From IMG/VR virus record IMGVR_UViG_3300037473_000391: a stretch of 64,000 nucleotides of DNA; one strand, 5' to 3'. The notes beneath the pieces were generated by a model. That model saw only the letters and a list, made by a program, of their open reading frames with translations, was not told the DNA's origin and did not search any database. This document shows positions 296 to 62,451 of this stretch, piece by piece. The translations under genes and the position numbers were made by a program. This stretch comes from a virus. The stretch's first letter is position 1, and every line of letters starts with the position of its first letter.

Positions 296-1129
296 ATGCG
301 CGAATGGCAAAATCAAAAGGCTCAGGCGGAAGCGGTGGAACCAAAGGTGGAGGGAAATCTAGCACTAGAGGTGGATAGCCTAGCAATTCGTCGCGAGGAT
401 CTCATCCACGCGCAGCTCAAAGCGACACAGCGCAAGTTCGACCGCGCCCTGGTTGTTGTCTCAGAGGCACTAGCCAAGGGCGCGGTCGGCGTTTCATTCT
501 CCGGCGGCAAGGACTCAACCGTCGTCCTTGACCTTGTGCGACGCATCGATCCCAATTCCGCTGCCGCGTTTTTCGACAGTGGCGCGGAGTTGCAGGGGAC
601 AATTCAGATTGTTGCGGACTACGGCGTAGAGATTATTCACCCGCGCATGACGCTGCTGGATATGGCTCGCTACGTCGGATGGTGGGGCTACCACGATCCT
701 GTCGATCCGGACTGTGGGTTCGACGCTAAGACCGTTCTGATCCAAGAGCCGAGCGAGGCCTTCGTCGTCCGTCGGCGGCTGTCGGTCGTCGCGTACGGAC
801 TGCGCATGCAGGAGAGTGGCGGGCGTAAGGTTCACCTTGCCACGCGAGGTGAACTTTGGCGCGGGCGAGATCGCACATGGTATTGCGCACCGCTTGCAAA
901 ATGGTCGCTGTCGGACGTCTGGGCCTACATAGCGTCACGGAGGCTGCGCTACCATCCCGCCTACGACGCACTGAGCGCTGCAGGTATACCGCGTGAAGCC
1001 CAGCGCATTGGGGCCGCAATAGGAAGCGCGGGCGCAGGCATGGGGCGCCACTGGCACCTACGGATCGCTGAGCCTGAGACCTGGCGCCGGCTCGTCGTGG
1101 AGTTTCCAGCGCTTGCGGCGCAGAGTTGA
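296..1129 (+). CDS. PAPS reductase / PP-loop ATP pyrophosphatase family protein (DndC/CysH-like)
   Basis: PP-loop motif SFSGGKDSTVVLDLV is present. The 277-aa size is typical of phage PAPS-reductase-like proteins. Confidence 0.85.
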   Translation: MREWQNQKAQAEAVEPKVEGNLALEVDSLAIRREDLIHAQLKATQRKFDRALVVVSEALAKGAVGVSFSGGKDSTVVLDLVRRIDPNSAAAFFDSGAELQGTIQIVADYGVEIIHPRMTLLDMARYVGWWGYHDPVDPDCGFDAKTVLIQEPSEAFVVRRRLSVVAYGLRMQESGGRKVHLATRGELWRGRDRTWYCAPLAKWSLSDVWAYIASRRLRYHPAYDALSAAGIPREAQRIGAAIGSAGAGMGRHWHLRIAEPETWRRLVVEFPALAAQS

Positions 1130-4187: not shown

Positions 4188-4215
4188 AAAACCCCGCCAG
4201 CCGAAGCCAGCGGGG
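4188..4215 (-). terminator. putative intrinsic terminator for leftward transcription
   Basis: The minus strand reads CCCCGC-N12-GCGGGG followed by TTTT. It sits between tRNA-Pro and the convergent plus-strand operon. The stem is only 6 bp. Confidence 0.35.
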
Positions 4216-4224
4216 TCAACCGAG

Positions 4225-4296
4225 TTGGGGTGGAGGGACTCGAACCCCCGGCATCCTGCTCCCAAAGCAGGCCGTCTACCACTGACTTACACCCCA
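4225..4296 (-). tRNA. tRNA-Pro (anticodon TGG)
   Basis: Hand-folded cloverleaf. Acceptor TGGGGTG/CACCCCA; anticodon arm CCTGC-TTTGGGA-GCAGG; T arm GGGGG-TTCGAGT-CCCTC. No encoded CCA. Confidence 0.8.
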
Positions 4297-4326
4297 GAAA
4301 GGTGAACAGCCAGCGTCACGGGTTTG

Positions 4327-4398
4327 GGTGACGGGCGCGATTCGAACGCGCGATGACTGGGGCCACATCCCAGCGCCTTACCACTTGGCTACCGCCAC
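4327..4398 (-). tRNA. tRNA-His (anticodon GTG)
   Basis: Acceptor GTGGCGG/CCGTCAC (one G-U pair); anticodon arm CTGGG-ATGTGGC-CCCAG; T arm GCGCG-TTCGAAT-CGCGC. The base at -1 is T, so no G-1 is encoded. Confidence 0.8.
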
Positions 4399-4450
4399 AG
4401 AAGAACTGCGAGCAAGTCATTGGCGATGGCGATGGGTGAGCATGTGAACT

Positions 4451-4523
4451 TGGTGGAGCCGTAGGGAGTTGAACCCTAGCAGGGTACGCGTGCAAAGCGG
4501 TCTGGCAGCCCGTGCGCGGCCCC
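4451..4523 (-). tRNA. tRNA-Ala(TGC)-like, atypical (possible pseudo-tRNA)
   Basis: Good acceptor GGGGCCG/CGGCTCC with G3:U70, a T arm TAGGG-TTCAACT-CCCTA and an encoded CCA. The loop TTTGCAC is identical to the tRNA-Ala(UGC) loop. However, the anticodon stem has only 3 bp and the D arm is degenerate. Confidence 0.45.
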
Positions 4524-4527
4524 GGAG

Positions 4528-4604
4528 TGGTTGCGCCTGCTGGATTTGAACCAGCGGCCTTCAGGTTATGAGCCTGACGAGGTACCGGACTCCTCTAAAG
4601 CGCA
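4528..4604 (-). tRNA. tRNA-Met (anticodon CAT; elongator type or tRNA-Ile2)
   Basis: Acceptor TGCGCTT/AGGCGCA; D arm GAGG-AGTCCGGTA-CCTC; anticodon arm TCAGG-CTCATAA-CCTGA; T arm GCTGG-TTCAAAT-CCAGC. CCA is encoded. Confidence 0.85.
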
Positions 4605-4641
4605 ACGGGAAGGTAACCCAAGACAAACAGCCGCGCAAGTC

Positions 4642-4959
4642 CTAGGGAACCTGAGCGGCCAAACCGATCAATTCCCGCACGGTCGGCATGAGGACCTGGA
4701 GGATCGCCGCGACGGCCCCAAGAACCGCCGCTGTGGCGGTCAGGAGTGCGGTCCAGCGCGCAATTGGCGGCATCGCCTGCACGGTCTCGACGACGCGCCT
4801 GGAGAGCGGCGCGCGGTCCGCTGGGGGGCGCAGGGAGGTGAGCTGGACGCGGAGCTCGGCGAGCTGACGCTCGGCTTCCTGGCGCGCCCTACGCTCTGCG
4901 AACAGAGGGTTCTCGAACTGAGCGCTCGGTCTCGTGGTGGGGGGCGGGGTATCGGTCAA
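4642..4959 (-). CDS. hypothetical coiled-coil protein with a C-terminal transmembrane segment
   Basis: Proposed TTG start in a TTGA overlap with the upstream stop. The hydrophobic tail is WTALLTATAAVLGAVAAILQVL. Confidence 0.4.
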   Translation of the reverse strand: MTDTPPPTTRPSAQFENPLFAERRARQEAERQLAELRVQLTSLRPPADRAPLSRRVVETVQAMPPIARWTALLTATAAVLGAVAAILQVLMPTVRELIGLAAQVP

Positions 4960-5411
4960 GGGCTGCTCGGTTTCTGGGATCGCGCCGCGGCTTCTGCTTC
5001 CGCACAGGCGGCTCGGCACTTGCGCAAAGCCTCGTTGATCAGATCGATGTCACCCTGGTCTTGGGCGTGGCAAACGTAGAACTTGATCGCGCCCTCCCCC
5101 GCGTTCTTGATGCCTTCGCGATGGGCGTAAACCTTGTGCCCTCTGTCCGATAGTTCCAGCGCCGGGTATGCATATGCGCGCCCCAAAGCGGATGCGTTGA
5201 GCATCGTGTGTGTTGGCGATTCGCCACTTAGAATCCCGCGCACGAAAACCATGAACTGGTCGCGATCCCAGGATCCGCAGAACCAGCAGCACAGATCCCC
5301 ATTGGGGCACACGCGGTCCACTCGCTCTGCCTCAGGTAGCCGCTCGCCAAACGGATGTCCGTCCTGTTGCGGACAACGCCGTGGTGATGAGACTTGGGCT
5401 TGTTCGGTCAT
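4956..5411 (-). CDS. hypothetical Cys-containing protein
   Basis: 4-nt overlap with the upstream gene. No motif recognised. Confidence 0.55.
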   Translation of the reverse strand: MTEQAQVSSPRRCPQQDGHPFGERLPEAERVDRVCPNGDLCCWFCGSWDRDQFMVFVRGILSGESPTHTMLNASALGRAYAYPALELSDRGHKVYAHREGIKNAGEGAIKFYVCHAQDQGDIDLINEALRKCRAACAEAEAAARSQKPSSP

Positions 5412-5650
5412 GGGTGCGGCTCCTTCTTCGCCAACTTGGCGTTGAGTTTCTCTTCGAGGATCGCGTGCTCGCGACGCTCGGTGATCTTGCCCGAATAGTT
5501 CGCCTCGGCGCCGGCAGCCGCCCCCTGGCGCTCGGCCGTGGCGTCACCAGGCTCGGTGCTAGTCACCTCGGGTTTACTCCCGCCTAACCACCGGATCAGC
5601 GCCCTGCCCCCGTCGAGCGCGAGTGCTTGCGCGACACTGGTCCAGCTCAC
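5408..5650 (-). CDS. hypothetical protein
   Basis: 4-nt overlaps on both sides. Confidence 0.5.
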   Translation of the reverse strand: MSWTSVAQALALDGGRALIRWLGGSKPEVTSTEPGDATAERQGAAAGAEANYSGKITERREHAILEEKLNAKLAKKEPHP

Positions 5651-6369
5651 GGTGCGCCCCGCAGCTGAATGGCAGCGAGCACGGCGTCTGTTAGTGCGCG
5701 GGGCTCGAACGGCTTGTCGAGTAGCGCGTACTGATTGCGATCCGCCACTGCCTCAAGCTCCACCAGCGGATAGCCCGACGTCAGGACCACTCCGCATGAC
5801 GGAGATCGGCGCCGAAGGTCTCCCGCGAGAGCGACGCCATCGGAATCGGCGAGCCGCACGTCAACGACGATGCACGAGAGATTTGCCGGGCCAACGCGCT
5901 CAGCTCGGAGTCTCGCGTCAGTGGCATTTCGCTCGTAGTATACGGTAGCGCCGGCCTCGCTCAGGATCGTGCGCATCACGGGGAGCAAGTGCGGATCGTC
6001 CTCAACGACGAGCACGACCAGCCTGGCGAGTTCTTCGCTGTGCAGGTCCCTGCCACGGGCTAACAGCACGGTGAGAGCATTGCTCTGGCGAGCCGCGATG
6101 TCCGCCATGGCGAGTTCCCATCGATCTCGACGCTGGGCCCTGGTCGCGAGTGCTTCGTTCGCGGCCGCGAGTTCAGCAAGGCGATCGGCCAGGATGCGCC
6201 AACGGTGCTCATCGAGTTCTCGTGTCTCCTCAGGGGTACGCTCGCCGCCATCCTGCTCGATCGTGACACGCGAGACGCGATCGGTTTCGTCGGCGTCAGG
6301 CGGCAGGGACGGGATCGTGTCGCGCACGGCGCGCATGTCCACTTGGGTGTCAGCGGTTGCGTCGCTCAC
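5647..6369 (-). CDS. CheY-like receiver (REC) domain protein with an N-terminal coiled-coil region
   Basis: The C-terminal 120 aa carry all the REC landmarks: VLVVEDD, the phosphoacceptor context IVVDVRLADSDG, VVLTSGY and LLDKPFEP. Confidence 0.8.
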   Translation of the reverse strand: MSDATADTQVDMRAVRDTIPSLPPDADETDRVSRVTIEQDGGERTPEETRELDEHRWRILADRLAELAAANEALATRAQRRDRWELAMADIAARQSNALTVLLARGRDLHSEELARLVVLVVEDDPHLLPVMRTILSEAGATVYYERNATDARLRAERVGPANLSCIVVDVRLADSDGVALAGDLRRRSPSCGVVLTSGYPLVELEAVADRNQYALLDKPFEPRALTDAVLAAIQLRGAP

Positions 6370-7052
6370 ACCTTCACCGCCTTGAGCTCCTGCGATCCCG
6401 TGCGCACCGTGGGGGCAACGGCGTCTGGAAAGACGGCCTCGCGTATGACGTCCAGGTTAACACATGGGCCGGGGTCGAATTTTCTTCCCGGCGCCACTTG
6501 ATCGTGCCCGAGCACTTCCCGGATCGTCGGGTACGCCGCGCGCAATGTCGCGCACAACTGGATCAAGAGTTCGATCTCTTCATCGGTGAACGGCGCCCAG
6601 TGGTTCCACTCGTGCGGCGCGAGACCGCTCGCATGGGTCGCAGCAACAGAGTCGCCGACCCAGCGGGACCCCCAGGTCGTGAACAGCTGACCGTTGCGGA
6701 GTAACAGCGGACCCGGGTTCGAGACTTCGATCCCGATTGCCCAGCCGTTGAGCGCTGGTCTTCCGTTCCAGCTCGATTCACCTGCGTGGTAGGCGCGTCG
6801 GTTGAACGGAACCATCTGGGCGCACTGCAGCACCGAGCGCTCACCCTCGCGATAGCCGTCGATGGCCAGGTGGCAGGAAACGTAGTCGCGCGCCTTGAGC
6901 GCCTGCACGGTGCCCTGCAGGTTAGCCGTCACGGAGTAGTGGACGATGATAGCCTCGGGCACGATGGGGCCACCGCGATCACTCTCCAGCAAACGCTGCA
7001 GTTGTACGCTGTCGGCAGGCTCGGTTTCGAGCCAGTGATCAACTACCCGCAT
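6366..7052 (-). CDS. N-acetylmuramoyl-L-alanine amidase (Amidase_2/PGRP type endolysin)
   Basis: Motifs IIVHYSVT, AYHAGESSWNG, NGWAIGIEVSNPG and GHDQVAPGRKFDPGP. Confidence 0.9.
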   Translation of the reverse strand: MRVVDHWLETEPADSVQLQRLLESDRGGPIVPEAIIVHYSVTANLQGTVQALKARDYVSCHLAIDGYREGERSVLQCAQMVPFNRRAYHAGESSWNGRPALNGWAIGIEVSNPGPLLLRNGQLFTTWGSRWVGDSVAATHASGLAPHEWNHWAPFTDEEIELLIQLCATLRAAYPTIREVLGHDQVAPGRKFDPGPCVNLDVIREAVFPDAVAPTVRTGSQELKAVKV

Positions 7053-7242
7053 TCTCTCCTCTTTCGGCTCGCTCGATCCGGTTGTTCAGAATGGCGACCA
7101 GGCGCTTGAGTCGTGTTGAGTGCGATGGGTCAACATACGTGCCCGCGACCGCGAGACGATCGAGCACTTCGACGCGACTGTGGAGTTCATCGCGCACGCT
7201 GCGCGCGTCCGACAGGTCGAGCGCGATGACGATTTCAGACAT
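7039..7242 (-). CDS. hypothetical protein
   Basis: Track ORF within the lysis cassette. Confidence 0.45.
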   Translation of the reverse strand: MSEIVIALDLSDARSVRDELHSRVEVLDRLAVAGTYVDPSHSTRLKRLVAILNNRIERAERGENAGS

Positions 7243-7651
7243 CGGGCCCTTTGCCGACTGCGTTCACGACGGCATCAGCGATCACTCGCCGCGACGTTGG
7301 CCCGTCGAGAGGCACACCAAGTGCGCCGCGGTATGGCGCGGGTGAGGCTTTGACGAGGTGGTGGATCAGAGGTGCCAGCATCCCTGACGCAGCACCTTTG
7401 GCTGCGCTCCACGGGTCGTCGCCAGCGCCAAGCGCACCGAGTGCAGCAGAAGCGAGCACGCTCGGCAACGTCTGCAGCGTGTTTTCTAGCCACCCACCCG
7501 GAGGGCCCCAGCGCAACAGCGCCGACCAGAGCGCAGGGCAGTACTTGCGCACCGCGTAGGTGGCGAGCCACGAGCAAAGCGTCAGCGACAGGAATGGCGC
7601 CGCAGGGTTGATGCCTTCGAGCCAGAGTCGCGATTCGACGAAGATGTTCAT
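7235..7651 (-). CDS. membrane protein, putative holin
   Basis: Several hydrophobic segments and a position just upstream of the amidase. Confidence 0.45.
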   Translation of the reverse strand: MNIFVESRLWLEGINPAAPFLSLTLCSWLATYAVRKYCPALWSALLRWGPPGGWLENTLQTLPSVLASAALGALGAGDDPWSAAKGAASGMLAPLIHHLVKASPAPYRGALGVPLDGPTSRRVIADAVVNAVGKGPDV

Positions 7652-7833
7652 CTGACGGTGCTATTCTCCCAAGGCGAGATCGGCTTTGGGTTTCCTGGGG
7701 GCTTGCCGTTTCCGTTGTCGCTCGGCTTCGAGTTTTGCGGAACCGATCTCAATCGCTTCAACGAGCGCGAGCCCGCAAACGGCGCAATGATCGCTGTGGA
7801 CGTGGTCGTACGCATGAGCGTGTTGACGAACAT
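7648..7833 (-). CDS. hypothetical protein (61 aa)
   Basis: Internal ATG of track ORF 7648..8214. High GC3. 4-nt overlap with the downstream gene. Abuts the upstream stop. Confidence 0.35.
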   Translation of the reverse strand: MFVNTLMRTTTSTAIIAPFAGSRSLKRLRSVPQNSKPSDNGNGKPPGNPKPISPWENSTVR

Positions 7834-7835
7834 CG

Positions 7836-8201
7836 TTAGTTCGTCCCTAGCGCCTCGACGGCGGCACAGATGCGCGTCACCGTTTGGGCAGTGGACTGCA
7901 CGCGCTCCGCCGCAGCGTCGAGGTGGTTGGTCTTGAGGCACGCGCCGCGCTTGACCGCGACGAGTGAAACCTCCCCGATTGCGTCGGGCAGTAGCTTCGC
8001 CTCGGCGCATGCCGCGTCTGCTTCCGCACTGTACTTGAGGTATTCGCTCTTCGCGGCCTCGTAGTCGCCTTGCGCGGTCTTGCAGTCGGATTCGAGTGTC
8101 GCGCGCGCTGCTTCGAAGCGCTGCAGCTGCGCTGGCGTGCAGGCGAGTTGCGGGATGCACGCGGGGATGAGGAGCGCGAGCGAGATGAGTAGCTTTTTCA
8201 T
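7836..8201 (-). CDS. putative lipoprotein
   Basis: Internal ATG at 8201 gives MKKLLISLALLIPAC, a signal peptide with a lipobox-like IPAC. It abuts the stop of 8204..8539. Confidence 0.55.
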   Translation of the reverse strand: MKKLLISLALLIPACIPQLACTPAQLQRFEAARATLESDCKTAQGDYEAAKSEYLKYSAEADAACAEAKLLPDAIGEVSLVAVKRGACLKTNHLDAAAERVQSTAQTVTRICAAVEALGTN

Positions 8202-8203
8202 GG

Positions 8204-8539
8204 TCACACAACACCCAGATTCTTCGTCACGACCAGGGTGCCTTTCTCTGTTTCGATAGGATCTGGCCAACCCGCTTTGCGAATTTGCACGTTGTAGTGG
8301 TAGTTCCCATAGGTGAGCAGCGTGTCTCCAGTGTCGCTGCTCACCTCGGCGGTTCCTGGACCAGTGATCGTGATACCAGCACTGACAGCGTACTGGAGCA
8401 CGAAGTCGGCATCCGAAGCGCTCTTTTTGACCGTGAACCAGATGCTGGCACCGGTCAGATCGTAAGCCGCTCCGGACGGATCCAAGAACGTGATGGTGCG
8501 CTGAAGCCACGTGCCCTTTGGAAGAACGATGGTCGACAT
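8204..8539 (-). CDS. hypothetical protein (beta-rich, virion-associated by context)
   Basis: Track ORF with no named motif. Confidence 0.55.
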   Translation of the reverse strand: MSTIVLPKGTWLQRTITFLDPSGAAYDLTGASIWFTVKKSASDADFVLQYAVSAGITITGPGTAEVSSDTGDTLLTYGNYHYNVQIRKAGWPDPIETEKGTLVVTKNLGVV

Positions 8540-8555
8540 CGTTGCCTCCTTGGGA

Positions 8556-8957
8556 TCAGGTGCCGACAGGCAACGTCAGTGTGAACGCTGAACACGAGAC
8601 TACTGCGTTCGCTACGATCGACACGGTGTTGAGGATCGCTTCGGTGCCGGAAGTTCCGACCGAAACGTCCATGATTGCGGTCGTGCCGTTCGATTGGAAC
8701 AGGCGCCCGAAGCTCGCGGTTCCGGTGTTGTCTGCCGCCGAGTCACTCGTGATCGCATTGGCGGTCAAAACGCCCCCGGATGCCGATCCGAACGACGTCG
8801 CGTTCATGGTCAGCTCGGCCAACAGTGTGTTGCCCGAGAGCGCGGTATCCGCGTCTGTCGGACGCGTGCCCGAGTAGATGCGAAGCAAACCGCTGTTGCA
8901 TGCGGACGTGAACGTGTCTAGCGCCGCGTTACGGCGCGCTACTGATACTCTTGCCAT
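8556..8957 (-). CDS. hypothetical protein
   Basis: Track ORF in the post-fibre block. Confidence 0.55.
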   Translation of the reverse strand: MARVSVARRNAALDTFTSACNSGLLRIYSGTRPTDADTALSGNTLLAELTMNATSFGSASGGVLTANAITSDSAADNTGTASFGRLFQSNGTTAIMDVSVGTSGTEAILNTVSIVANAVVSCSAFTLTLPVGT

Positions 8958-8966
8958 GTTAACCTT

Positions 8967-10028
8967 TCAGGCTGTCACGCTGGTAATGCGTGCAAATTTT
9001 TCCGTGTAGCTCTTGATGCGCGGAGCCACGATTGAGGGGTTCGAGACGTTGACGTCTGCGTCGACAGTGAACGCGGCGAGCGAGGCGCCGATCGTGGCGC
9101 TGACGTTGGTGGCAACGAGAACGTTTGCCGATGCGACGAATCCAGCGACGTCAGCCGCTATGGTTGCCGGGATCCGCTCGGTTGCTGAGGCGCTCACCGT
9201 GAACGCAGGGAGCTGCGCAGCAACGGTGGCTGTGACGTCGCCCGTCGACATCGTCGCTGCAGCGGTGATGCCTGCTAGCGAAGCGGCGACTGTGCTTGGG
9301 ATTGTCTCGCTGATCGAAGCCGAGACGGATAGTCCAGCGAGCTGGGCCGCCACGGTAGACGGGACTCGCTCGGCCAGCGCGGCGGACGCATCGATGCCAG
9401 CGAGGCTCGCTGCGACCGCGACATTCACGCCGTTGATTGACTGCAGCGTCGCCGCGACAGTGAATCCGGCGAGGCTCGCCGCGACCGTCGACGGAATTGA
9501 CTCTGTCGCGGTGGCGCTCGCGGTTAACCCAGAGAGCGAAGCGGCGACCGCAACGGTGATACCATTCGTGACCGTGACGCTGGCGGCCGCGTCAATTCCT
9601 GCGAGTGATGCGGCAACGGTGCCGGGTATCGACTCGGTTGCCGTGGCTGCAACCGTTAGCCCGCTCAGTGAAGCCGCAACCGTGCCGGTGACAGGATTGG
9701 CGACCGTCGCGGTGGCCGCGGCATCTATCCCGGCGAGGCTTGCTGCAACGGTTGCCGGAACCGTCTCAGTGATCGTTGCGGCTGCTACGAGTCCCGAGAG
9801 CGAGGCGCTGACAGTCGAAGTAATCGACTCAGTCACGGTCGCCGATGCCGTCAGCCCCGCCAGTGAGGCAGTGACTGTTGACGGTATCGTTTCGGTTACG
9901 GTTGCGGAAACGCCGAACGTGCCGGTGGTCGCGGCAACCGTGATCGAGACCGAGCCGGGCGGAGCACCGAACAGCGCCGCGCTAAATCGCCGTGGTCGCC
10001 TCGGCTTCTTTCGCCGGAACCACGCCAT
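8967..10028 (-). CDS. tandem-repeat protein (about 13 units of 21-24 aa, core TVAASLAG)
   Basis: Basic N-terminus MAWFRRKKPRRPRR, followed by repeated xTExIPSTVAASLAG(L/I)xAxA units. Confidence 0.6.
   Translation of the reverse strand: MAWFRRKKPRRPRRFSAALFGAPPGSVSITVAATTGTFGVSATVTETIPSTVTASLAGLTASATVTESITSTVSASLSGLVAAATITETVPATVAASLAGIDAAATATVANPVTGTVAASLSGLTVAATATESIPGTVAASLAGIDAAASVTVTNGITVAVAASLSGLTASATATESIPSTVAASLAGFTVAATLQSINGVNVAVAASLAGIDASAALAERVPSTVAAQLAGLSVSASISETIPSTVAASLAGITAAATMSTGDVTATVAAQLPAFTVSASATERIPATIAADVAGFVASANVLVATNVSATIGASLAAFTVDADVNVSNPSIVAPRIKSYTEKFARITSVTA
9068..9923. repeat. approximately 63-72 bp coding tandem repeats
   Basis: The periodicity is seen in the translated protein. 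Both strands stay open across it (shadow ORF 9013..10035). Confidence 0.6.
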
Positions 10029-33388: not shown

Positions 33389-33745
33389 GGGTTAATTGGT
33401 GGACTCGCAGGGCATCGAAACCCTGGTCCGAGACTGGTTCAGAGAACGTCGTTCACAGGCTTGTCCGGGTGTGACCCGGCGACTTGCTCTTGCGAGCGTT
33501 GGGAGCTGGTTGCCCAGCGCCTCCACCAGAGTGTTCCTTGGCAACACACAAGCTAGTTGGGCAGGGTTCACACTCCACGCAGGGCTGCCCAGTCCCGCGT
33601 GGTATGGCTCAAGCCGCTACGGGCAGAGCAGTTGCGTTGTCATTCGCAATTGGGGTTGATGCGTTGTTCAGAGCGGAAGCATCGCCGCTCGCCTGCACGT
33701 TCTACTGTTCCTGGCCCCGTCGAAACCGATTCGAGCCCAAAACTC

Positions 33746-39464: not shown

Positions 39465-41075
39465 TTAGAAGCCTCGGGCGTTCGTGTCATCGCCCCAGCG
39501 CGAGGCGGGACGCGGTTGACGCGGCACCACTGCCGTCATCTGGTTACCGGCGCCGTAGATTGCGATGGCGAGCGCGTCACCCTTGTCGGGGCTGCGTCCG
39601 AGTCGCTTCTTAATTTGATCTTTGGGCTCGACCTTGCGGCGACCCTTCGTGTCGAACGAGTACTGCGGGGCCAGGATGTCGCCCTGCAACTCATCGTCCG
39701 GAGGTATCGAGCCGCCCTCTTTGAGCCACTCTCCGACACCGAATAGCGCCTCATCTCGGGCGTTGACGTATTGCGGATCCCTTGCAGCCGCCGAGCCGTT
39801 GAACTCGTGCACACGGACGAGTTGAATGTCCGGTCGCGTGTGCTCCTTGAGCATTACGCGAAGCTGGTCAACAACTCCGCCGCCGTAGCCGCCGCCGACG
39901 TCAACCGTGATGCACGCGGGCTCATCGACGCGCTTGTTCGCAACGATCACGTCAAGCGCCATGCCGGCGACTTGAATGCTATCGAAGCCAGAGCAAGCTC
40001 GAGCTTCGAGCGCTCGCGATCCGCGATTTGGCTGTGCTACGCTTTGGTCATCACCGAAGCGCGCGACGTCGAGTCCGAGGGATATAGGGCCATCCGGCGC
40101 ACAGCTTGGCCATCGCTCGACCGCTTGCTCGACGAGCAGCAGCGCGACGACCGAATTGGCCGCTTGCGATGGCGGGCGACCAAGGACACGCACCTGGTAG
40201 CGCGGGTCATCGACGCCCCATTGCTTGCGGCGTTGCTCGCACCATTCTGGTGTTGCGAGCCCAGGGATCCATTCGCGTCCAACGATCCACAGGGGAGCGT
40301 CGACCGAACGGAGCCGGTGAAACTTCCAAACGCCTGTTTCATTCGGAGGCTCGCCCCGAATCTGCTGGCGCTCCGCTTCGAAGAACGTTCCCGATGTTTG
40401 CGTCGGGTTACCGTATAGAAGCTGGTGACCGCCGCCTGCCGTGTTGCCTTCGAACGCGGCGAAGAATGTCTCTTTGATGCCGCTCGCTTCGTCGGCAATG
40501 ATCAGGATGTTGGCGCCGGAGAAACCGGCCGTTCCTTCCTGAGTGCCAGCTACGCGACCACGCAGCCAGTTGTGCGTTAGTGGCGACTGGATGCCGCGTC
40601 GCGGATCGAGCGGAAGCGACGGGAGTGGAAGCAGCCGAAGCGCTTCGAGAACCCATGGCTCAGTAGCGGACGGCTTTTCAGCGACCGCGCGGAGCACCTC
40701 TCTGAGTTCGTCCCAGAGGATGTCTTTGACCTGGTCCTCGGTCGTGCTCGTCAGAATGACGGGGGCACGCTCTCGAGTTTCACACCACCAAGTCCCAGTG
40801 CAAACTGCGCCGCGAGACTTGCCGGTCTTCTGTCCCGAGTGAACGCAGACGTGCGCGTAGCGCGCGACATCGAGCGCAATCTCGACTTGCTTGTCATGCA
40901 GACGAGTGCCGAGTCGCTCCCAAGCGTAGAGCCCGGGATCGTCGTGCCAGCGCGCGATCAGTTCTGCTGTCGCGTCAGTGCACTCGTTGCTCTTCAGACT
41001 CGCCAGCTTCGCTTTCGCTACTCTCCGCAGCGATTGCTGAAGCCAGTCGCTCGAAGTGTTCTGCTGGGAGGACAC
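39465..41075 (-). CDS. terL: terminase large subunit
   Basis: Walker A-like HSGQKTGKS and Walker B ILIIADEAS. 536 aa. Confidence 0.85.
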   Translation of the reverse strand: MSSQQNTSSDWLQQSLRRVAKAKLASLKSNECTDATAELIARWHDDPGLYAWERLGTRLHDKQVEIALDVARYAHVCVHSGQKTGKSRGAVCTGTWWCETRERAPVILTSTTEDQVKDILWDELREVLRAVAEKPSATEPWVLEALRLLPLPSLPLDPRRGIQSPLTHNWLRGRVAGTQEGTAGFSGANILIIADEASGIKETFFAAFEGNTAGGGHQLLYGNPTQTSGTFFEAERQQIRGEPPNETGVWKFHRLRSVDAPLWIVGREWIPGLATPEWCEQRRKQWGVDDPRYQVRVLGRPPSQAANSVVALLLVEQAVERWPSCAPDGPISLGLDVARFGDDQSVAQPNRGSRALEARACSGFDSIQVAGMALDVIVANKRVDEPACITVDVGGGYGGGVVDQLRVMLKEHTRPDIQLVRVHEFNGSAAARDPQYVNARDEALFGVGEWLKEGGSIPPDDELQGDILAPQYSFDTKGRRKVEPKDQIKKRLGRSPDKGDALAIAIYGAGNQMTAVVPRQPRPASRWGDDTNARGF

Positions 41076-58512: not shown

Positions 58513-59153
58513 GCGGCCACCTCCGAGCTGCCCTGAGCGACGCACGGGATCGCTGCGCGAACCTCAGCACAGTCCTGGAACCATTCACCCTGAACACGCC
58601 ACTCAGCGAGGCGCTTGTGCAGGGCCAGCTCGTCACGCTTGGTACCTGGCATCGTGCGCAGAACCTCGACCGAACCGAAGCGCTTCTCGAGATCGCGCAC
58701 CCGTTGCTTCAGGTTCGACGTGAACCCGATCTTGATGCACCATGTGCTCTCGGCACGGATGAAGTACACGACCGATTCGCGTGCGACGCAGACCTTAGGG
58801 CCAAGTCCGTTCCGATTCAGATGCGCGCGCAGCCAAGCGTCAGCATGCGGCGTGTAGATCGTGACCGCGCCTCCCGGAGCACGCTCACAGGGCATCGGAT
58901 TATTCGCTTGCGTGAGCCAGCGCTTGACCGTGCCGAGCGAGAGTTTTCGCAGCTCAGCGTATCGGCGCGGAGTGACTCGCGCGGGCACAAGGCGAGACAG
59001 GGTGACGCGAGCGCGGTCCGCCAGCTGCGTCGTCTTCGTTCCGTCCTCAAGGACAACGTTGCGCCCGAAGTAGCCGCCCTTGGGCATCCACTTGCCAGCG
59101 CTGACTATGCGGCGCCCGTCCCGCATGACCATCTGCGCGGTGGGCTCGGTCAC
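58509..59153 (-). CDS. T5orf172 (GIY-YIG-like) domain protein with an N-terminal HTH
   Basis: VYFIRAESTWCIKIGFTSNLKQRVRDL...HKRLAEWRVQGEWF. Confidence 0.65.
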   Translation of the reverse strand: MTEPTAQMVMRDGRRIVSAGKWMPKGGYFGRNVVLEDGTKTTQLADRARVTLSRLVPARVTPRRYAELRKLSLGTVKRWLTQANNPMPCERAPGGAVTIYTPHADAWLRAHLNRNGLGPKVCVARESVVYFIRAESTWCIKIGFTSNLKQRVRDLEKRFGSVEVLRTMPGTKRDELALHKRLAEWRVQGEWFQDCAEVRAAIPCVAQGSSEVAA

Positions 59154-60529
59154 GACGCCACCACCTTCCGGGCGCGCGTCAAATCCCAGGGGCCAAAGAT
59201 CTCACTACCCTGCTCCGCTGTCCGGATCGCCTTACGGAGCCAGGCGCGATCGTCACTGTTCCGATTTTGGAGCGATTTATCCGCTAAGCCTGCGTTGTCA
59301 CTCTGCTTAGCTCCGGTTTCGTAAACCGTAGGTCTCCAGTTCGATTCTGGAAGTTGGCTCTCTTGTTTTTCCCTGAATTTGACGATAACTCGCTCCGAGT
59401 CACTGGAACGGCTCTGGAACGTTTTCTCCGCCGCCTTGAACGCCTTGTCGTCGAGCAGTTGGGCGTAGATCTCGGTCGTCGTCACAGACGCGTGCCCGAG
59501 TAGCGCGCGCACTTCCTCGAGTGACCACGTGTGATCCGTCTCTGACCACCAGCCTGCGAGCAGCGCGGTGGCCGTCGTGTGGCGAAGCCAGTGCCAGTTG
59601 CGGTACGGGATCTTGCACGCGCGGAACAACTCGACCCAGCCCTTCGGGTGCTTGTTCCAGCGGCGTTGCTCCCCGCGCCAACCCGGGAACAGCCACTCCG
59701 ATTTCGCGAGAGCCGGGAACGCAGAGCGCAGTTCGCCTAGGAGCCGCAGCGCTTCATCTGTTGGCGGGAGACGCGGGACTTCGCGCCAGTCTCCGGACTT
59801 CGGCGATGCGTTCGCTTCACTGCGGCGAATCAGGATCCCTGACTCCGACACGTCCTCGCGCTTGACACCCCACTGCTCCGAAAGGCGGCATCCCGTGCCC
59901 AGGGCGAACAACACCGACGCAAGCAGGAGCTTGCGCTTCGCTTCATCCTGCTTTGCGTGTTCGCTCAGCTTCAGTCGCTTGGGCTCACGTAACTCACGGA
60001 GCAGCGCGTTCTGGTGCTCAGGGCGCAGCAACTTGGAGAGCAGCTCCGTCTTTGGAGTCTTCCCTGCCTTGCCTCGGATCTGGATGCCATCACACGGGTT
60101 GGCCGCCACAAGTTCACGCTCGACCGCGTAGGCAAATGCGTATCGCATCGAGTTTAGGCGATTGCGCTTCGTGCTCGGCGACACTGCGCGATCGATCCAA
60201 TTCTTGATGTGGACGCGCGCCAGGTCGACGGCTCGGGTTGCGCCGAACTCTGCGATGATTGCGGTCCATATGCCGCGCTCACCACGGAGTGTCGATGGCT
60301 TCAGATCGCTGCGACGCAAACGCTCAGCTCTCACGAGCTCGACGAGGTGCCTTACAGTGAACTCGTCAGCCTTGACCTGCAGGGCAACGAGCGCGTCGGC
60401 GTACTCGCGCGCCCTCGCCTCGGTGAGGCCGCTCGCAACGGTCTGGAGTTTGCCCTCGATGCGAGTTCGCACGCGCCACTTGCCCGGCGCGTACTCCTCA
60501 ATGTTACCACTTCCGTACTCGCGACTCAT
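59150..60529 (-). CDS. int: tyrosine integrase with a ~105-aa extension after the catalytic Tyr
   Basis: The ATG at 60529 is preceded by GGAGGA and overlaps the upstream stop. Motifs GCRLSE, HWLRHT and LLGHASVTTTEIY. Confidence 0.9.
   Translation of the reverse strand: MSREYGSGNIEEYAPGKWRVRTRIEGKLQTVASGLTEARAREYADALVALQVKADEFTVRHLVELVRAERLRRSDLKPSTLRGERGIWTAIIAEFGATRAVDLARVHIKNWIDRAVSPSTKRNRLNSMRYAFAYAVERELVAANPCDGIQIRGKAGKTPKTELLSKLLRPEHQNALLRELREPKRLKLSEHAKQDEAKRKLLLASVLFALGTGCRLSEQWGVKREDVSESGILIRRSEANASPKSGDWREVPRLPPTDEALRLLGELRSAFPALAKSEWLFPGWRGEQRRWNKHPKGWVELFRACKIPYRNWHWLRHTTATALLAGWWSETDHTWSLEEVRALLGHASVTTTEIYAQLLDDKAFKAAEKTFQSRSSDSERVIVKFREKQESQLPESNWRPTVYETGAKQSDNAGLADKSLQNRNSDDRAWLRKAIRTAEQGSEIFGPWDLTRARKVVAS
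59312..59359 (+). mobile_element. putative attP core: 3' half of a tRNA-Thr(CGT) inside int
   Basis: CCGGT-TTCGTAA-ACCGT AGGTC TCCAG-TTCGATT-CTGGA AGTTGGC T. There is no D arm or 5' acceptor strand. Confidence 0.6.
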
Positions 60530-60723
60530 CGGATCCTCCGCAGGCCCGCGCTCACGGCGCGCAGCGCTTCTTCGCTGGGGGGTTGCGCCGGCGGGGTCAA
60601 CTTGCGGCGCTTGCGCGGTTTCTGATGCCCTCGAACTCGAGCGAGTTCTTCGGCGCACGCCGAGATGGCAGCAGCGTGGCGAGCAATCTCGCTCGTAATC
60701 TCCTGTTCGCTTCGCTCACTCAT
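60526..60723 (-). CDS. small basic protein upstream of int (excisionase/directionality-factor candidate)
   Basis: Translationally coupled to int. The function is inferred from position only. Confidence 0.4.
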   Translation of the reverse strand: MSERSEQEITSEIARHAAAISACAEELARVRGHQKPRKRRKLTPPAQPPSEEALRAVSAGLRRIR

Positions 60724-61065: not shown

Positions 61066-62451
61066 TCACGCTTCCTGCTGGAACGCCAGCTTTGGGTTTT
61101 GGTTGCACCATTGAGGTGTCGGCCACGAAATGGTCTCGGGCGGCGCGTAGGTCAGCACAACGTCGCCGTGCCGAATCTGCTTGGCGTCAGCGACCGAGCT
61201 GACGGGGATCTGCCAACGTCGTGCCGCTTGGGCGGTTTTCAATTCAGGGTGAACGGGCTCCACGAAGTGTGGTTGCGAGCCGTCATGCAGCGCGGGCGAA
61301 CGCATGCGCAGGAACCGCGGCTGCTCGTCCCCGAGCCGCGTTGCCGTGTCCAGCAACTGATAGTCGAGTCCCGTCTTCGGATCCTGCCACTCGTCGATCG
61401 TCACGAGGTCGCGCAGCGCGAGATACTTTTCCCAACCGAGCTTCTCGGCAAGGCATCGGTGTATCTCCGAGTTGCGCTCTGCATTCAGCTCCTCGCGGGT
61501 GAACGACTCCGGCTCCGTGATGACGCGCTTGTCGACGCGCACACCGTGCCAGACATAGATCTCGTAGCCATCACGGCAGCGCAGCGCCGGGCCATCGGAG
61601 CTGTGCAGGCGACCACGTTCGTCCATCGAGAAGCTCTCGTGCCGCTCGGAGCAGATAACGAATTCACCAAAGACGAAGAAGTGTGTGGGACCGCTGATCA
61701 GCTTGAGCCAGCGCTCTAGCTGTGCGTTCTGATCTGCAGTGAACTCCACACCGCAGACGTCGCGCACGGACGCGCAGTGCATCCACCAGCTGAACCAATG
61801 CGTTGACCAGCGGTTACCCCAGGCACGCCAGTGCAGATCGGCGAGTTGCCCTCGGAGTTGCCCTCGGAGTTGCCCGTCGAGTTGCCCTCGGAGTTGCCCG
61901 TCGAGTTGCCCTCGGAGTTGCCCGTCGAGTTGCCCTCGGAGTTGCCCGTCGAGTTGCCCGTAGAGTTGCCCGGCGAGTTGCCCTCGGAGTTGCCCGTCGA
62001 GTTGCCCGTAGAGTTGCCCGTCGAGTTGCCCGTAGAGTTGCCCGTCGAGTTGCCCTCGGAGTTGCCCGTCGAGTTGCCCGTCGAGTTGCCCGTAGAGTTG
62101 CCCGTAGAGTTGCCCGTAGAGTTGCCCGTCGAGTTGCCCTCGGAGTTGCCCGTCGAGTTGCCCGTCGAGTTGCCCGGCGACGTCAGCGAGCTTCCCGCTC
62201 TTTGCCAAGATCAGCGCATAGGCGATGAGGGGCGCCGCAAGCACGCAGCTCAGCGGGCCGTCGAACCAGAAGATTTTAGGCGCTGGCTTGCCAAGGGCGG
62301 CGTACATCTCGGTCAGAACAGCGGCGGTGGTCTCGCGGTCTGCCGGTTCCGTGCTCTTACCCTTGGCAAGCCAGCGCTCGCGCTCGGAATCGATCCGATT
62401 CCACTGCTCTGGTGTCAAACTTGTGATCTTGGCGTTTCCCATCGCGTTCAC
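61066..62451 (-). CDS. hypothetical protein with 28 tandem GQLx tetrapeptides
   Basis: 461 aa. The repeat block is flanked by W-rich non-repetitive domains. Confidence 0.65.
   Translation of the reverse strand: MNAMGNAKITSLTPEQWNRIDSERERWLAKGKSTEPADRETTAAVLTEMYAALGKPAPKIFWFDGPLSCVLAAPLIAYALILAKSGKLADVAGQLDGQLDGQLRGQLDGQLYGQLYGQLYGQLDGQLDGQLRGQLDGQLYGQLDGQLYGQLDGQLRGQLAGQLYGQLDGQLRGQLDGQLRGQLDGQLRGQLDGQLRGQLRGQLADLHWRAWGNRWSTHWFSWWMHCASVRDVCGVEFTADQNAQLERWLKLISGPTHFFVFGEFVICSERHESFSMDERGRLHSSDGPALRCRDGYEIYVWHGVRVDKRVITEPESFTREELNAERNSEIHRCLAEKLGWEKYLALRDLVTIDEWQDPKTGLDYQLLDTATRLGDEQPRFLRMRSPALHDGSQPHFVEPVHPELKTAQAARRWQIPVSSVADAKQIRHGDVVLTYAPPETISWPTPQWCNQNPKLAFQQEA
61841..62176. repeat. 12-bp in-frame tandem repeat, 28 copies
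   Basis: Plus-strand units are GAGTTGCCC followed by TCG, GTC or GTA. These encode GQL(R/D/Y) on the minus strand. Confidence 0.9.

Follow-up and report, generated by a model that had tools for sequence, protein, structure and literature searches.

Why would a tailed phage carry a two-component receiver domain in a gene that overlaps its own endolysin gene? The question is raised by a 64-kb stretch of virus DNA (64,000 nucleotides; IMG/VR record IMGVR_UViG_3300037473_000391; hereafter the window), in which the gene for a 240-amino-acid (aa) protein with a C-terminal receiver domain (5647..6369, minus strand) starts within the end of the gene for an amidase-type endolysin. The protein is referred to here as REC, and its full-length relatives are referred to as the REC family. 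The answer that we favor, with a probability of roughly 40%, is that REC may be a phospho-switch that modulates lysis through TMP, a membrane protein encoded downstream, and/or through a short peptide motif in the endolysin.

Receiver domain and active site

The Pfam profile Response_reg (PF00072) matched aa 119 to 230 of the protein with 46 bits (E = 6.7e-12) over model positions 1 to 110 of 111. The curated cutoff of this profile is 30.2 bits, and the hidden Markov model search suggested by an earlier reading made from the letters alone (the sequence-only reading) thus recovered the whole domain. The AlphaFold2 (AF2) model of the 240-aa protein had a mean predicted local distance difference test score (pLDDT) of 80 and showed a (beta-alpha)5 fold of five strand-helix pairs at aa 118 to 238 (5656..6018, minus strand; pLDDT about 90). 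Foldseek matched hundreds of solved receiver domains with template modeling (TM) scores of about 0.8, normalized to the target (0.7 to 0.87 for 1l5y, 3crn, 4d6y, and others). Both Foldseek and a PDB profile search returned receiver domains only, with DctD, NtrX, StyR, NtrC4, and Spo0F among them.

The receiver landmarks listed in the sequence-only reading are present: the acidic pair in VVEDD (E123, 6001-6003, and D124, 5998-6000), the phosphoacceptor Asp in VVDVRLADSDG (D170, 5860-5862), the VLTSGY segment (T197-S198), and the Lys in DKPF (K219, 5713-5715; all codons are on the minus strand). The Thr that it singled out in VLTSGY is the part that did not stand. In an alignment of 16 family members, some of which are less than 30% identical, the T197 position is occupied by T, I, V, H, S, or Q, whereas position 198 is always Ser or Thr, so that the conserved hydroxyl is S198 (5776-5778). 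D124, D170, K219, and the Gly after the acceptor loop are invariant in this alignment, and position 123 is always Glu or Asp. The usual aromatic switch position is Leu216 in the window protein. An acceptor Asp that is not conserved had been named earlier as the sign of a pseudo-receiver; D170 is invariant in 16/16 members, very divergent ones included. Because the catalytic residues are conserved among 16 diverged members, the protein is not a pseudo-receiver, and it can be argued that the phospho-chemistry is under selection. Taken together, the alignment and the structural model place the 240-aa protein in the receiver-domain superfamily as a genuine member, and its active site is intact.

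The label "CheY-type" used previously holds for the fold only. At 240 aa, with an N-terminal extension of 117 aa and without che genes in its vicinity, the protein is not CheY proper, and the neighbors of its gene in the window are lysis and tail genes. The N-terminal half had been described as having no recognizable DNA-binding or enzymatic motif, in agreement with the absence of Pfam matches and with the AF2 model, which shows a disordered acidic segment and one helix. Residues 1 to 45 are acidic and predicted by AF2 to be disordered (net charge of the N-terminal region, -6), and they contain a conserved peptide, SDATADTQVDMRAVRDT (6316..6366, minus strand; pLDDT <50). Its pattern, [TS]-D-A-T-x-[DE]-T-Q-x-M-x-A-V-R, occurs in most family members and is kept even in the distant members P0021, P0075, and L015. 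A single long helix follows (aa 46 to 104; 6058..6234, minus strand; pLDDT 76 to 91), with no Pfam match; its conserved segment, A-R-Q-[NS]-N-A-L-T-V-L-L-A, stands just before the REC domain in the alignment. This modeled helix of ∼60 residues is presumed to be a coiled-coil or dimerization element. The resemblance of ARQNNALTVLL to HRVKNNLQVV, with Ala in place of His, led us to consider a degenerate HisKA_2/HWE DHp or histidine phosphotransferase (HPt) domain, an idea that was rejected on three counts: no Pfam match at an E value of ≤10, one continuous AF2 helix, and no conserved His in the N-terminal half.

Outside the receiver domain, no DNA-binding or enzymatic output domain was matched by Pfam at an E value of ≤10 in three family members. 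Classical output-bearing regulators (OmpR, NarL, NtrC, and LytTR) were dismissed as models on the same Pfam threshold and on the AF2 structure, in which no output domain is joined to the receiver. With no enzymatic or DNA-binding output, any action of the protein must be via phosphorylation-dependent protein contacts or phosphotransfer. As for a source of phosphoryl groups, the sequence-only reading had noted no histidine kinase in the window. We compared 174 proteins, of which 67 carry HATPase_c G1/G2 boxes, with all open reading frames (ORFs) of the window by phmmer; the matches were limited to the REC and TMP ORFs, which indicates that no histidine kinase is encoded in the 64 kb.

The REC family is very rare. 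A word-indexed search identified six full-length relatives with 50 to 73% identity, and a handful more (P0018-P0022, P0075, and P0143) came from HMMER, which was run exhaustively against 1.84 billion cluster representatives. The family comprises about 10 clusters among these representative proteins, all 10 or so of them metagenomic. The setting was that of a phage in every REC-family context that was fetched. No relatives of the 240-aa protein were found in 50,697 cultured-phage records (INPHARED), IMG/VR, a metagenome-contig set, or 185,579 GTDB species genomes; the sole IMG/VR candidate (locus L005) was rejected as an ordinary KdpD/KdpE-type locus. Beyond the full-length relatives, the HMMER matches are generic REC domains, the best of which score high through three or four receivers each. 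Since the top nonfamily cellular matches contain three or four REC domains, they are uninformative about a cognate kinase. Some family members differ at their ends: in P0007 (L010 10-546), the C-terminal motif of protein B (LEERLDARL; protein B is described below) is fused to the end of the REC domain, whereas P0021 (L017) and the L018 protein (5698-6435) have an N-terminal Cys-rich, zinc-ribbon-like extension. A separate 55-aa ORF with a CxxC...CxxC arrangement lies directly upstream of REC in L016 (7837-8004).

Lysis cassette, module, and endolysin motif

The REC gene is part of a run of nine tightly packed genes that extends from 8201 to 4642 and encodes, in order, a lipoprotein, a 61-aa ORF, a 138-aa membrane protein, a 67-aa ORF, the amidase, REC, protein B, a 151-aa ORF, and TMP. 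The first junction is a 2-nt gap, and the next ones are overlaps of 4, 8, 14, 4, 4, 4, and 4 bp (an overlap chain from 7833 to 4642). No sigma-70-like promoter was predicted in 4200-8700. The gene just upstream of REC encodes a 228-aa N-acetylmuramoyl-L-alanine amidase (6366..7052, minus strand) that matches Pfam Amidase_2 (67 bits) and PHROG amidase/endolysin families. The REC and amidase genes are both on the minus strand, which corrects the sequence-only reading. That reading had also coupled the 240-aa ORF to the amidase stop by an ATGA; the 4-nt overlap is real, but its sequence is GTGA, with GTG as the start codon (junction, AAG GTG TGA GCG). Homologs located behind quite different upstream genes conserve the peptide SDATADTQVD, which is encoded between this GTG and the first Met. 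Because this conservation upstream of the first Met is at the protein level, GTG is the true start of REC and the 4-bp coupling is real. The view of REC as an orphan receiver expressed with the lysis genes thus holds for a kinase-less protein whose gene shares a 4-bp GTGA overlap with the amidase gene inside an overlapping gene chain. Cotranscription and translational coupling of REC with the lysis genes are supported by this arrangement of the sequence.

A survey of related phages, proposed along with the original description, identified the endolysin-REC arrangement in 7/10 informative loci, with three nonhomologous lysin types. Membership in the lysis cassette follows from position: REC adjoins the endolysin gene with a 4-bp overlap in the window, L001, L007, L013/14, and L018. 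L001/L002 encode a PHROG-1356 holin, a Peptidase_M15_4 endolysin, REC (4-bp overlap; 50% identical), and TMP, and an M15_4 endolysin likewise precedes REC with a 4-bp overlap in L007 and L018. In L013/L014, the order is holin, Amidase_2, REC, B, and TMP. L016 begins with a homolog of the 138-aa membrane protein of the window and continues with an 84-aa ORF, a 281-aa protein, the 55-aa zinc-ribbon ORF, REC, B, and a long form of TMP; in L006, the C terminus of a 281-aa protein of the L016 type overlaps REC by 4 bp. The 281-aa protein occupies the lysin position in L016 and has no Pfam, PHROG, or PDB match, so that its role as a lysin rests on this position and on the motif described below.

Downstream of REC, TMP was present in 9/9 distinct loci having enough sequence, and all TMP homologs for which the context was fetched adjoin a REC-family gene. 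TMP is therefore a more constant partner of REC than the endolysin is. The window TMP gene (4642..4959, minus strand; 105 aa, TTG start) encodes one strong transmembrane helix (hydropathy, 2.19). Between REC and TMP may lie protein B, which in the window has 80 aa (5408..5650, minus strand), a GTGA overlap with the REC stop, and the C-terminal motif LE-x-KL-[ND]-A-[KR]-L; homologs of B follow REC in L013/14, L016, L006, and L017. A 151-aa ORF with ATGA and TTGA overlaps with its neighbors (4956..5411, minus strand; no Pfam, PHROG, or PADLOC match) is located between B and TMP in the window. The gene at this position is variable cargo, and other loci have different genes there; the extra ORF between REC and TMP has 151 aa in the window and 127 aa in L006, and L001, L008, and L015 have nothing between the two genes. 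When the window was compared with the 20.7-kb L001 locus, REC and TMP were the sole protein matches at an E value of <1e-4, and only the amidase, REC, B, and TMP matched between the window and L013. Since REC and TMP alone are common to the window and L001, and the amidase, REC, B, and TMP are common to the window and L013, REC-(B)-TMP is a mobile accessory module. As judged from these gene orders, the module consists of REC as its first gene, an optional B, and then TMP, and it is located at the distal end of the lysis cassettes of otherwise unrelated tailed phages, in most cases with a 4-bp overlap with the stop codon of the endolysin gene, regardless of the lysin type.

The AF2 model of the long form and the hydropathy profile give TMP two cytoplasmic helices and one transmembrane helix. 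The N-terminal domain, which precedes the transmembrane helix, is cytoplasmic, basic (+3), helical, and about 70 aa long, with the conserved N terminus T-D-x-P-P-x-T-x-x-S-A...N-P-L-L-A-E-R-R-R-A-E. Most homologs have 162 to 186 aa and carry a long periplasmic helix that ends in C-R-T-G-N-K-P-x-W...T-C-P-V-P, a two-Cys C-terminal knot. The short forms (window, L001, L013, and L015) stop just after the membrane helix and are natural truncations in comparison with P0166 and P0168-P0174. A two-component spanin or i-spanin was considered and rejected for TMP on the basis of the ∼70 cytoplasmic residues before the helix, the short copies that end after it, and the lack of an embedded lipobox ORF. 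Having neither a PHROG, Pfam, or BFVD match nor an embedded lipoprotein, TMP was not filed as a spanin or a known holin.

The lysins that precede the module share a short peptide. The motif P-x-T-[VIL]-R-[TE]-G-S-[GQ]-E-[LF], which contains an R-x-x-S arrangement, was found in 6/6 distinct lysin genes upstream of the module, representing three unrelated types, and always lies outside the catalytic domain. In the window, a motif scan placed it at the extreme C terminus of the amidase (PTVRTGSQEL, aa 214 to 223; 6384..6413, minus strand). It is located at the N terminus of the L013/14 amidase (L013 about 8441-8470), in the interdomain linker of three M15 enzymes (L001 about 9570-9600, L007 about 222-250, and L018 about 5267-5296), and in the 281-aa L016 protein (about 7229-7258). 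The synonymous codons of the motif differ, which places the conservation at the peptide level. A DNA-level origin was also rejected after a back-translated scan of IMG/VR returned one chance match, in an RNA-virus contig. To estimate the background, we examined endolysins related to those beside the module: at 33 IMG/VR M15 endolysin loci (27 to 63% identical in the catalytic domain), no motif and no REC-family gene or TMP within 3 kb was found, and a Rhizobium phage amidase that is 35% identical to the window amidase aligns across the region with no motif and no REC neighbor. In total, the motif was present in 6/6 module-adjacent lysins and in 0/34 controls (33 M15 enzymes and 1 amidase). We read it from these sequences as a candidate short linear site for docking or modification that moves along with the module.

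The remaining genes of the cassette have less clear identities. At the head of the packed chain, a 121-aa protein with a signal peptide and Cys (7836..8201, minus strand; mature N terminus CTPAQLQRFEA by translation) is helical, has no family match, and is possibly an outer-membrane lysis factor or an exclusion protein. A similar lipoprotein is encoded in L018 (4228-4515; CTPAELQKFEA) and, with a different N terminus, in L001 (8810-9154); the L001 lipoprotein is homologous to the L013 one (47% identity), and the likeness between the window and L001 proteins was seen by eye and is below the BLAST cutoff. The 138-aa membrane protein (7235..7651, minus strand) has moderately hydrophobic segments and no family match; by its position, which is also that of its L016 homolog, it is the putative holin of the window cassette. 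The 67-aa soluble ORF (7039..7242, minus strand) overlaps both this gene and the amidase gene and has no Pfam, PHROG, or PADLOC match.

Genes of other types were observed around the cassette in related loci. An Acb2_Tad1_hairpin gene, resembling cyclic-nucleotide sponges, is located just upstream of the holin gene in L013 (7819-8190), L014 (5772-6143), and L018 (4535-4900), and NAMPT/NAPRTase and NUDIX genes are located just downstream in L018 (7976-10197). In L008, a low-GC (52%) segment upstream of the REC gene (1-209) has on the opposite strand, by translation only, a NUMOD4/HNH-like signature (...YEVSSLGRVRS...), which suggests that a homing endonuclease may have inserted beside the module.

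Weighing the possible roles

If REC modulates lysis, it would be made late in infection along with the endolysin, would dimerize via its long helix, and would act in the cytoplasm as a phospho-switch of the lysis apparatus. A host histidine kinase, an HPt protein, or acetyl phosphate could set its phosphorylation, and the phosphorylation state would govern how REC binds the basic cytoplasmic domain of TMP, the endolysin motif, or both; the acidic N-terminal region of REC (-6) could pair with the basic TMP domain (+3). With its single helix, TMP would have an N-in topology resembling that of class III holins and i-spanins. In this way, REC would adjust the timing or place of endolysin release and couple lysis to the physiological state of the host. 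The strongest reason to see the module as acting on the lysis machinery, and not as a mere neighbor of it, is the motif shared by unrelated module-adjacent lysins. A more specific version, a phosphorylation-gated lysis checkpoint, is doubtful: here REC would dock onto its own endolysin via PxT[VIL]R[TE]GS[GQ]E[LF] and onto the cytoplasmic domain of TMP, and would free or activate both only at a certain phosphorylation state, which acetyl phosphate or a host phosphorelay would set.

Several observations weigh against a role in lysis. In L008, L009, and L017 (3/10 loci), no same-strand gene overlaps REC in the available upstream sequence. Neither TMP nor B matches a known lysis family (TMP has no PHROG, Pfam, or BFVD entry), and the periplasmic domain seen in the long forms is missing from the window TMP. 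The module is accessory, since 33 phages with related endolysins do without it. The association with the motif rests on few lineages that are not phylogenetically independent. Finally, the anti-defense-type cargo of related phages, Acb2/Tad1-like upstream and NAMPT and NUDIX downstream, implies that the distal end of the late operon may be a plain cargo hot spot.

The main rival explanation takes up this cargo. REC could be a decoy receiver, or phosphate sink, that is tethered by TMP at the inner membrane and competes with host response regulators for phosphoryl groups supplied by histidine kinases or phosphotransferases of the host; late in infection, it would shut down an envelope-stress response or an anti-phage system of the two-component type, and its adjacency to the lysin would reflect coregulation only. 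We consider this possible, though somewhat unlikely. The catalytic residues are intact and strongly conserved, yet there is neither an output domain nor a kinase, a combination that suits a sink, and the constant membrane partner would put the receiver near membrane kinases. The anti-defense-type genes that related phages carry in this region (Acb2_Tad1_hairpin in L013, L014, and L018; NAMPT and NUDIX in L018) point in the same direction. Phage inhibitors resembling the bacterial receiver DtcB have been reported. DtcB is a stand-alone receiver encoded in the dtcA-dtcB-dtcC operon of Detocs and has been proposed to absorb phosphoryl groups as a phosphate buffer (10.1101/2023.01.24.525353); it resembles REC in being a receiver without an output domain and provides the model for the decoy. 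REC itself was not identified as a Detocs DtcB, as neither a kinase gene nor an effector gene is present in the window and PADLOC gave no match, although the release used may not contain Detocs models. The lack of any PADLOC defense or anti-defense match in the window also counts against a decoy. Moreover, lysin-coupled late expression would be late for blocking an infection sensor, and a decoy leaves unexplained the motif common to three unrelated lysin types.

It is improbable that the module is cargo unrelated to lysis or host phosphorelays, for instance, a membrane module for superinfection exclusion or lysogenic conversion that happened to insert where the late operon ends, a common moron site. 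Mobility and optional presence would fit such cargo, as would the varying inserts between REC and TMP, the HNH-like gene that abuts the module in L008 (by translation), the integrase of the phage (59150..60658), and the Cys-containing periplasmic domain of the long TMP forms, which could face an incoming phage. Against these stands the 4-bp overlap with the upstream gene, which is kept in 7 loci; together with the lack of a predicted internal promoter, it speaks for late expression and not for expression during lysogeny. Nor would cargo of this kind explain why the module strictly co-occurs with the endolysin motif. Least probable, and very unlikely in our view, is a phosphorylation-independent adaptor that uses the REC fold as a binding scaffold, for example, in chaperoning or assembling the endolysin or TMP: the absence of an encoded kinase in the window, Leu216 at the aromatic switch position, and the variability at T197 would agree with it, but the invariance of D124, D170, and K219, the acidic position 123, and the Ser/Thr at position 198 in 16 diverged members would be unexpected if the phospho-chemistry were unused.

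Phage genome and relation to known systems

The phage segment in the window is GC-rich (62%) and of the myovirus type, with nearly all virion, packaging, and integrase genes on the minus strand. It encodes a terminase large subunit (TerL; 39465..41075), a tyrosine integrase (59150..60658), a portal protein, a ClpP-type prohead protease, a major head protein, a tail sheath, and Baseplate_J and GpP-like proteins. A divergently transcribed plus-strand block opens with a PAPS-reductase-like gene (PHROG 2302; 296..1129, plus strand) and, in the longer contig L003, continues beyond the start of the window with Csf3-like and DUF4942 genes; a DUF6745 protein (61066..62451) and the integrase are at the opposite window end. 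The late/lysis transcription unit ends at a cluster of tRNA-Pro(TGG), tRNA-His(GTG), and tRNA-Met(CAT) genes (4224..4604, minus strand; ARAGORN and Rfam), of which the tRNA-Met shares 93% identity over 54 nt with that of Komagataeibacter phages phiKX1 and phiKX2. A one-piece, complete tmRNA gene (33397..33738, minus strand; ARAGORN; Rfam, 60.8 bits) has the tag peptide ANDNATALPVAA. Because it lies within the virion structural module, with head genes on one side and tail-sheath-side genes on the other, it looks phage encoded rather than part of an attachment site. Just upstream of the lysis region, a 353-aa ORF (8967..10028, minus strand) contains many degenerate protein repeats of the type VAASL(A/S)G(L/I)(T/D)A(S/A)A(T/S)(A/V)TE(S/T)IP(S/A)T and probably encodes a fiber or decoration protein; Tandem Repeats Finder detected no DNA-level tandem repeat in it. 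The top TerL relative in GTDB is 38% identical and comes from a Rhodobacteraceae genome, and the closest cultured relatives of the window amidase are from phages of Alphaproteobacteria (30 to 37% identity). These distant relatives hint at an alphaproteobacterial host but are suggestive only.

Single-domain response regulators (CheY, Spo0F, DivK, and CpdR) resemble REC in the fold, the catalytic residues, and the absence of an output domain. REC differs from them in that it is phage encoded, has its receiver at the C terminus behind a 117-aa extension, and is encoded in a lysis cassette with no che, spo, or cell cycle genes nearby and no cognate kinase. Among viral sequences, the REC half matched PHROG 731 and 5982 (E values of 2e-10 and 4e-8, respectively) and about 26 BFVD viral models at an E value of ≤1e-3. 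Both PHROGs are annotated as being of "unknown function," match the REC half only, and have other architectures. The BFVD models, for example, a "hybrid sensor kinase-response regulator" of Alteromonas phage vB_AmeM_PT11-V22, show that tailed phages occasionally carry REC domains.

Phage lysis is timed by a holin-intrinsic clock that is modulated by antiholins and, in T4 and N4, also by superinfection signals. In T4, the accessory proteins RI and RIII, encoded in or close to the lysis genes, modulate lysis timing by binding holin T, which is bitopic with an N-in orientation, and RIII is cytoplasmic and binds the cytoplasmic N terminus of the holin. Like holin T, the long TMP forms cross the membrane with one helix, which separates a cytoplasmic domain at the N terminus from a periplasmic domain containing two Cys residues, and by this analogy RI and RIII may be regarded as the closest functional analogs of REC. 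The differences are that there is no sequence or fold similarity, that T4 lysis inhibition involves no receiver or phosphorylation, and that the window TMP has no periplasmic domain. Phosphorelays can decide the timing of holin/endolysin-type lysis, as in LytSR-lrgAB and, for gene transfer agents, in CckA-ChpT-CtrA. Those systems act through host-encoded, DNA-binding transcription regulators, whereas REC lacks a DNA-binding domain and its gene lies within the cassette that it would regulate. RoeA, a "PhoB-like regulator" beside a Yersinia lysis cassette, was rejected as a precedent because it has no receiver domain. The sequence-only reading knew of no characterization of this gene arrangement, and our literature search likewise found no paper on a receiver protein in a lysis cassette and none on a characterized phage-encoded response regulator. 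To our knowledge, no phospho-signaling element in a lysis cassette is known. We rate as new here a known signaling domain that appears in a new architecture and in a new conserved genomic role.

The endolysin motif provides a concrete handle for the physical partner of the module. Because the module is small (about 1.7 kb from REC to TMP and about 1.0 kb for the REC and TMP genes alone) and comes in natural variants (three lysin types and long or short TMP), its role is testable by gene synthesis despite the uncultured host. A phosphorylation-gated checkpoint, if true, would be the first two-component chemistry to act posttranslationally inside a phage lysis cassette, and its carrier module would move between phages, retrofitting different endolysins with a docking motif. 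If REC is wired to the endolysin and TMP, phages could sense host physiology or host kinases just when lysis takes place; alternatively, REC may represent a new anti-signaling decoy.

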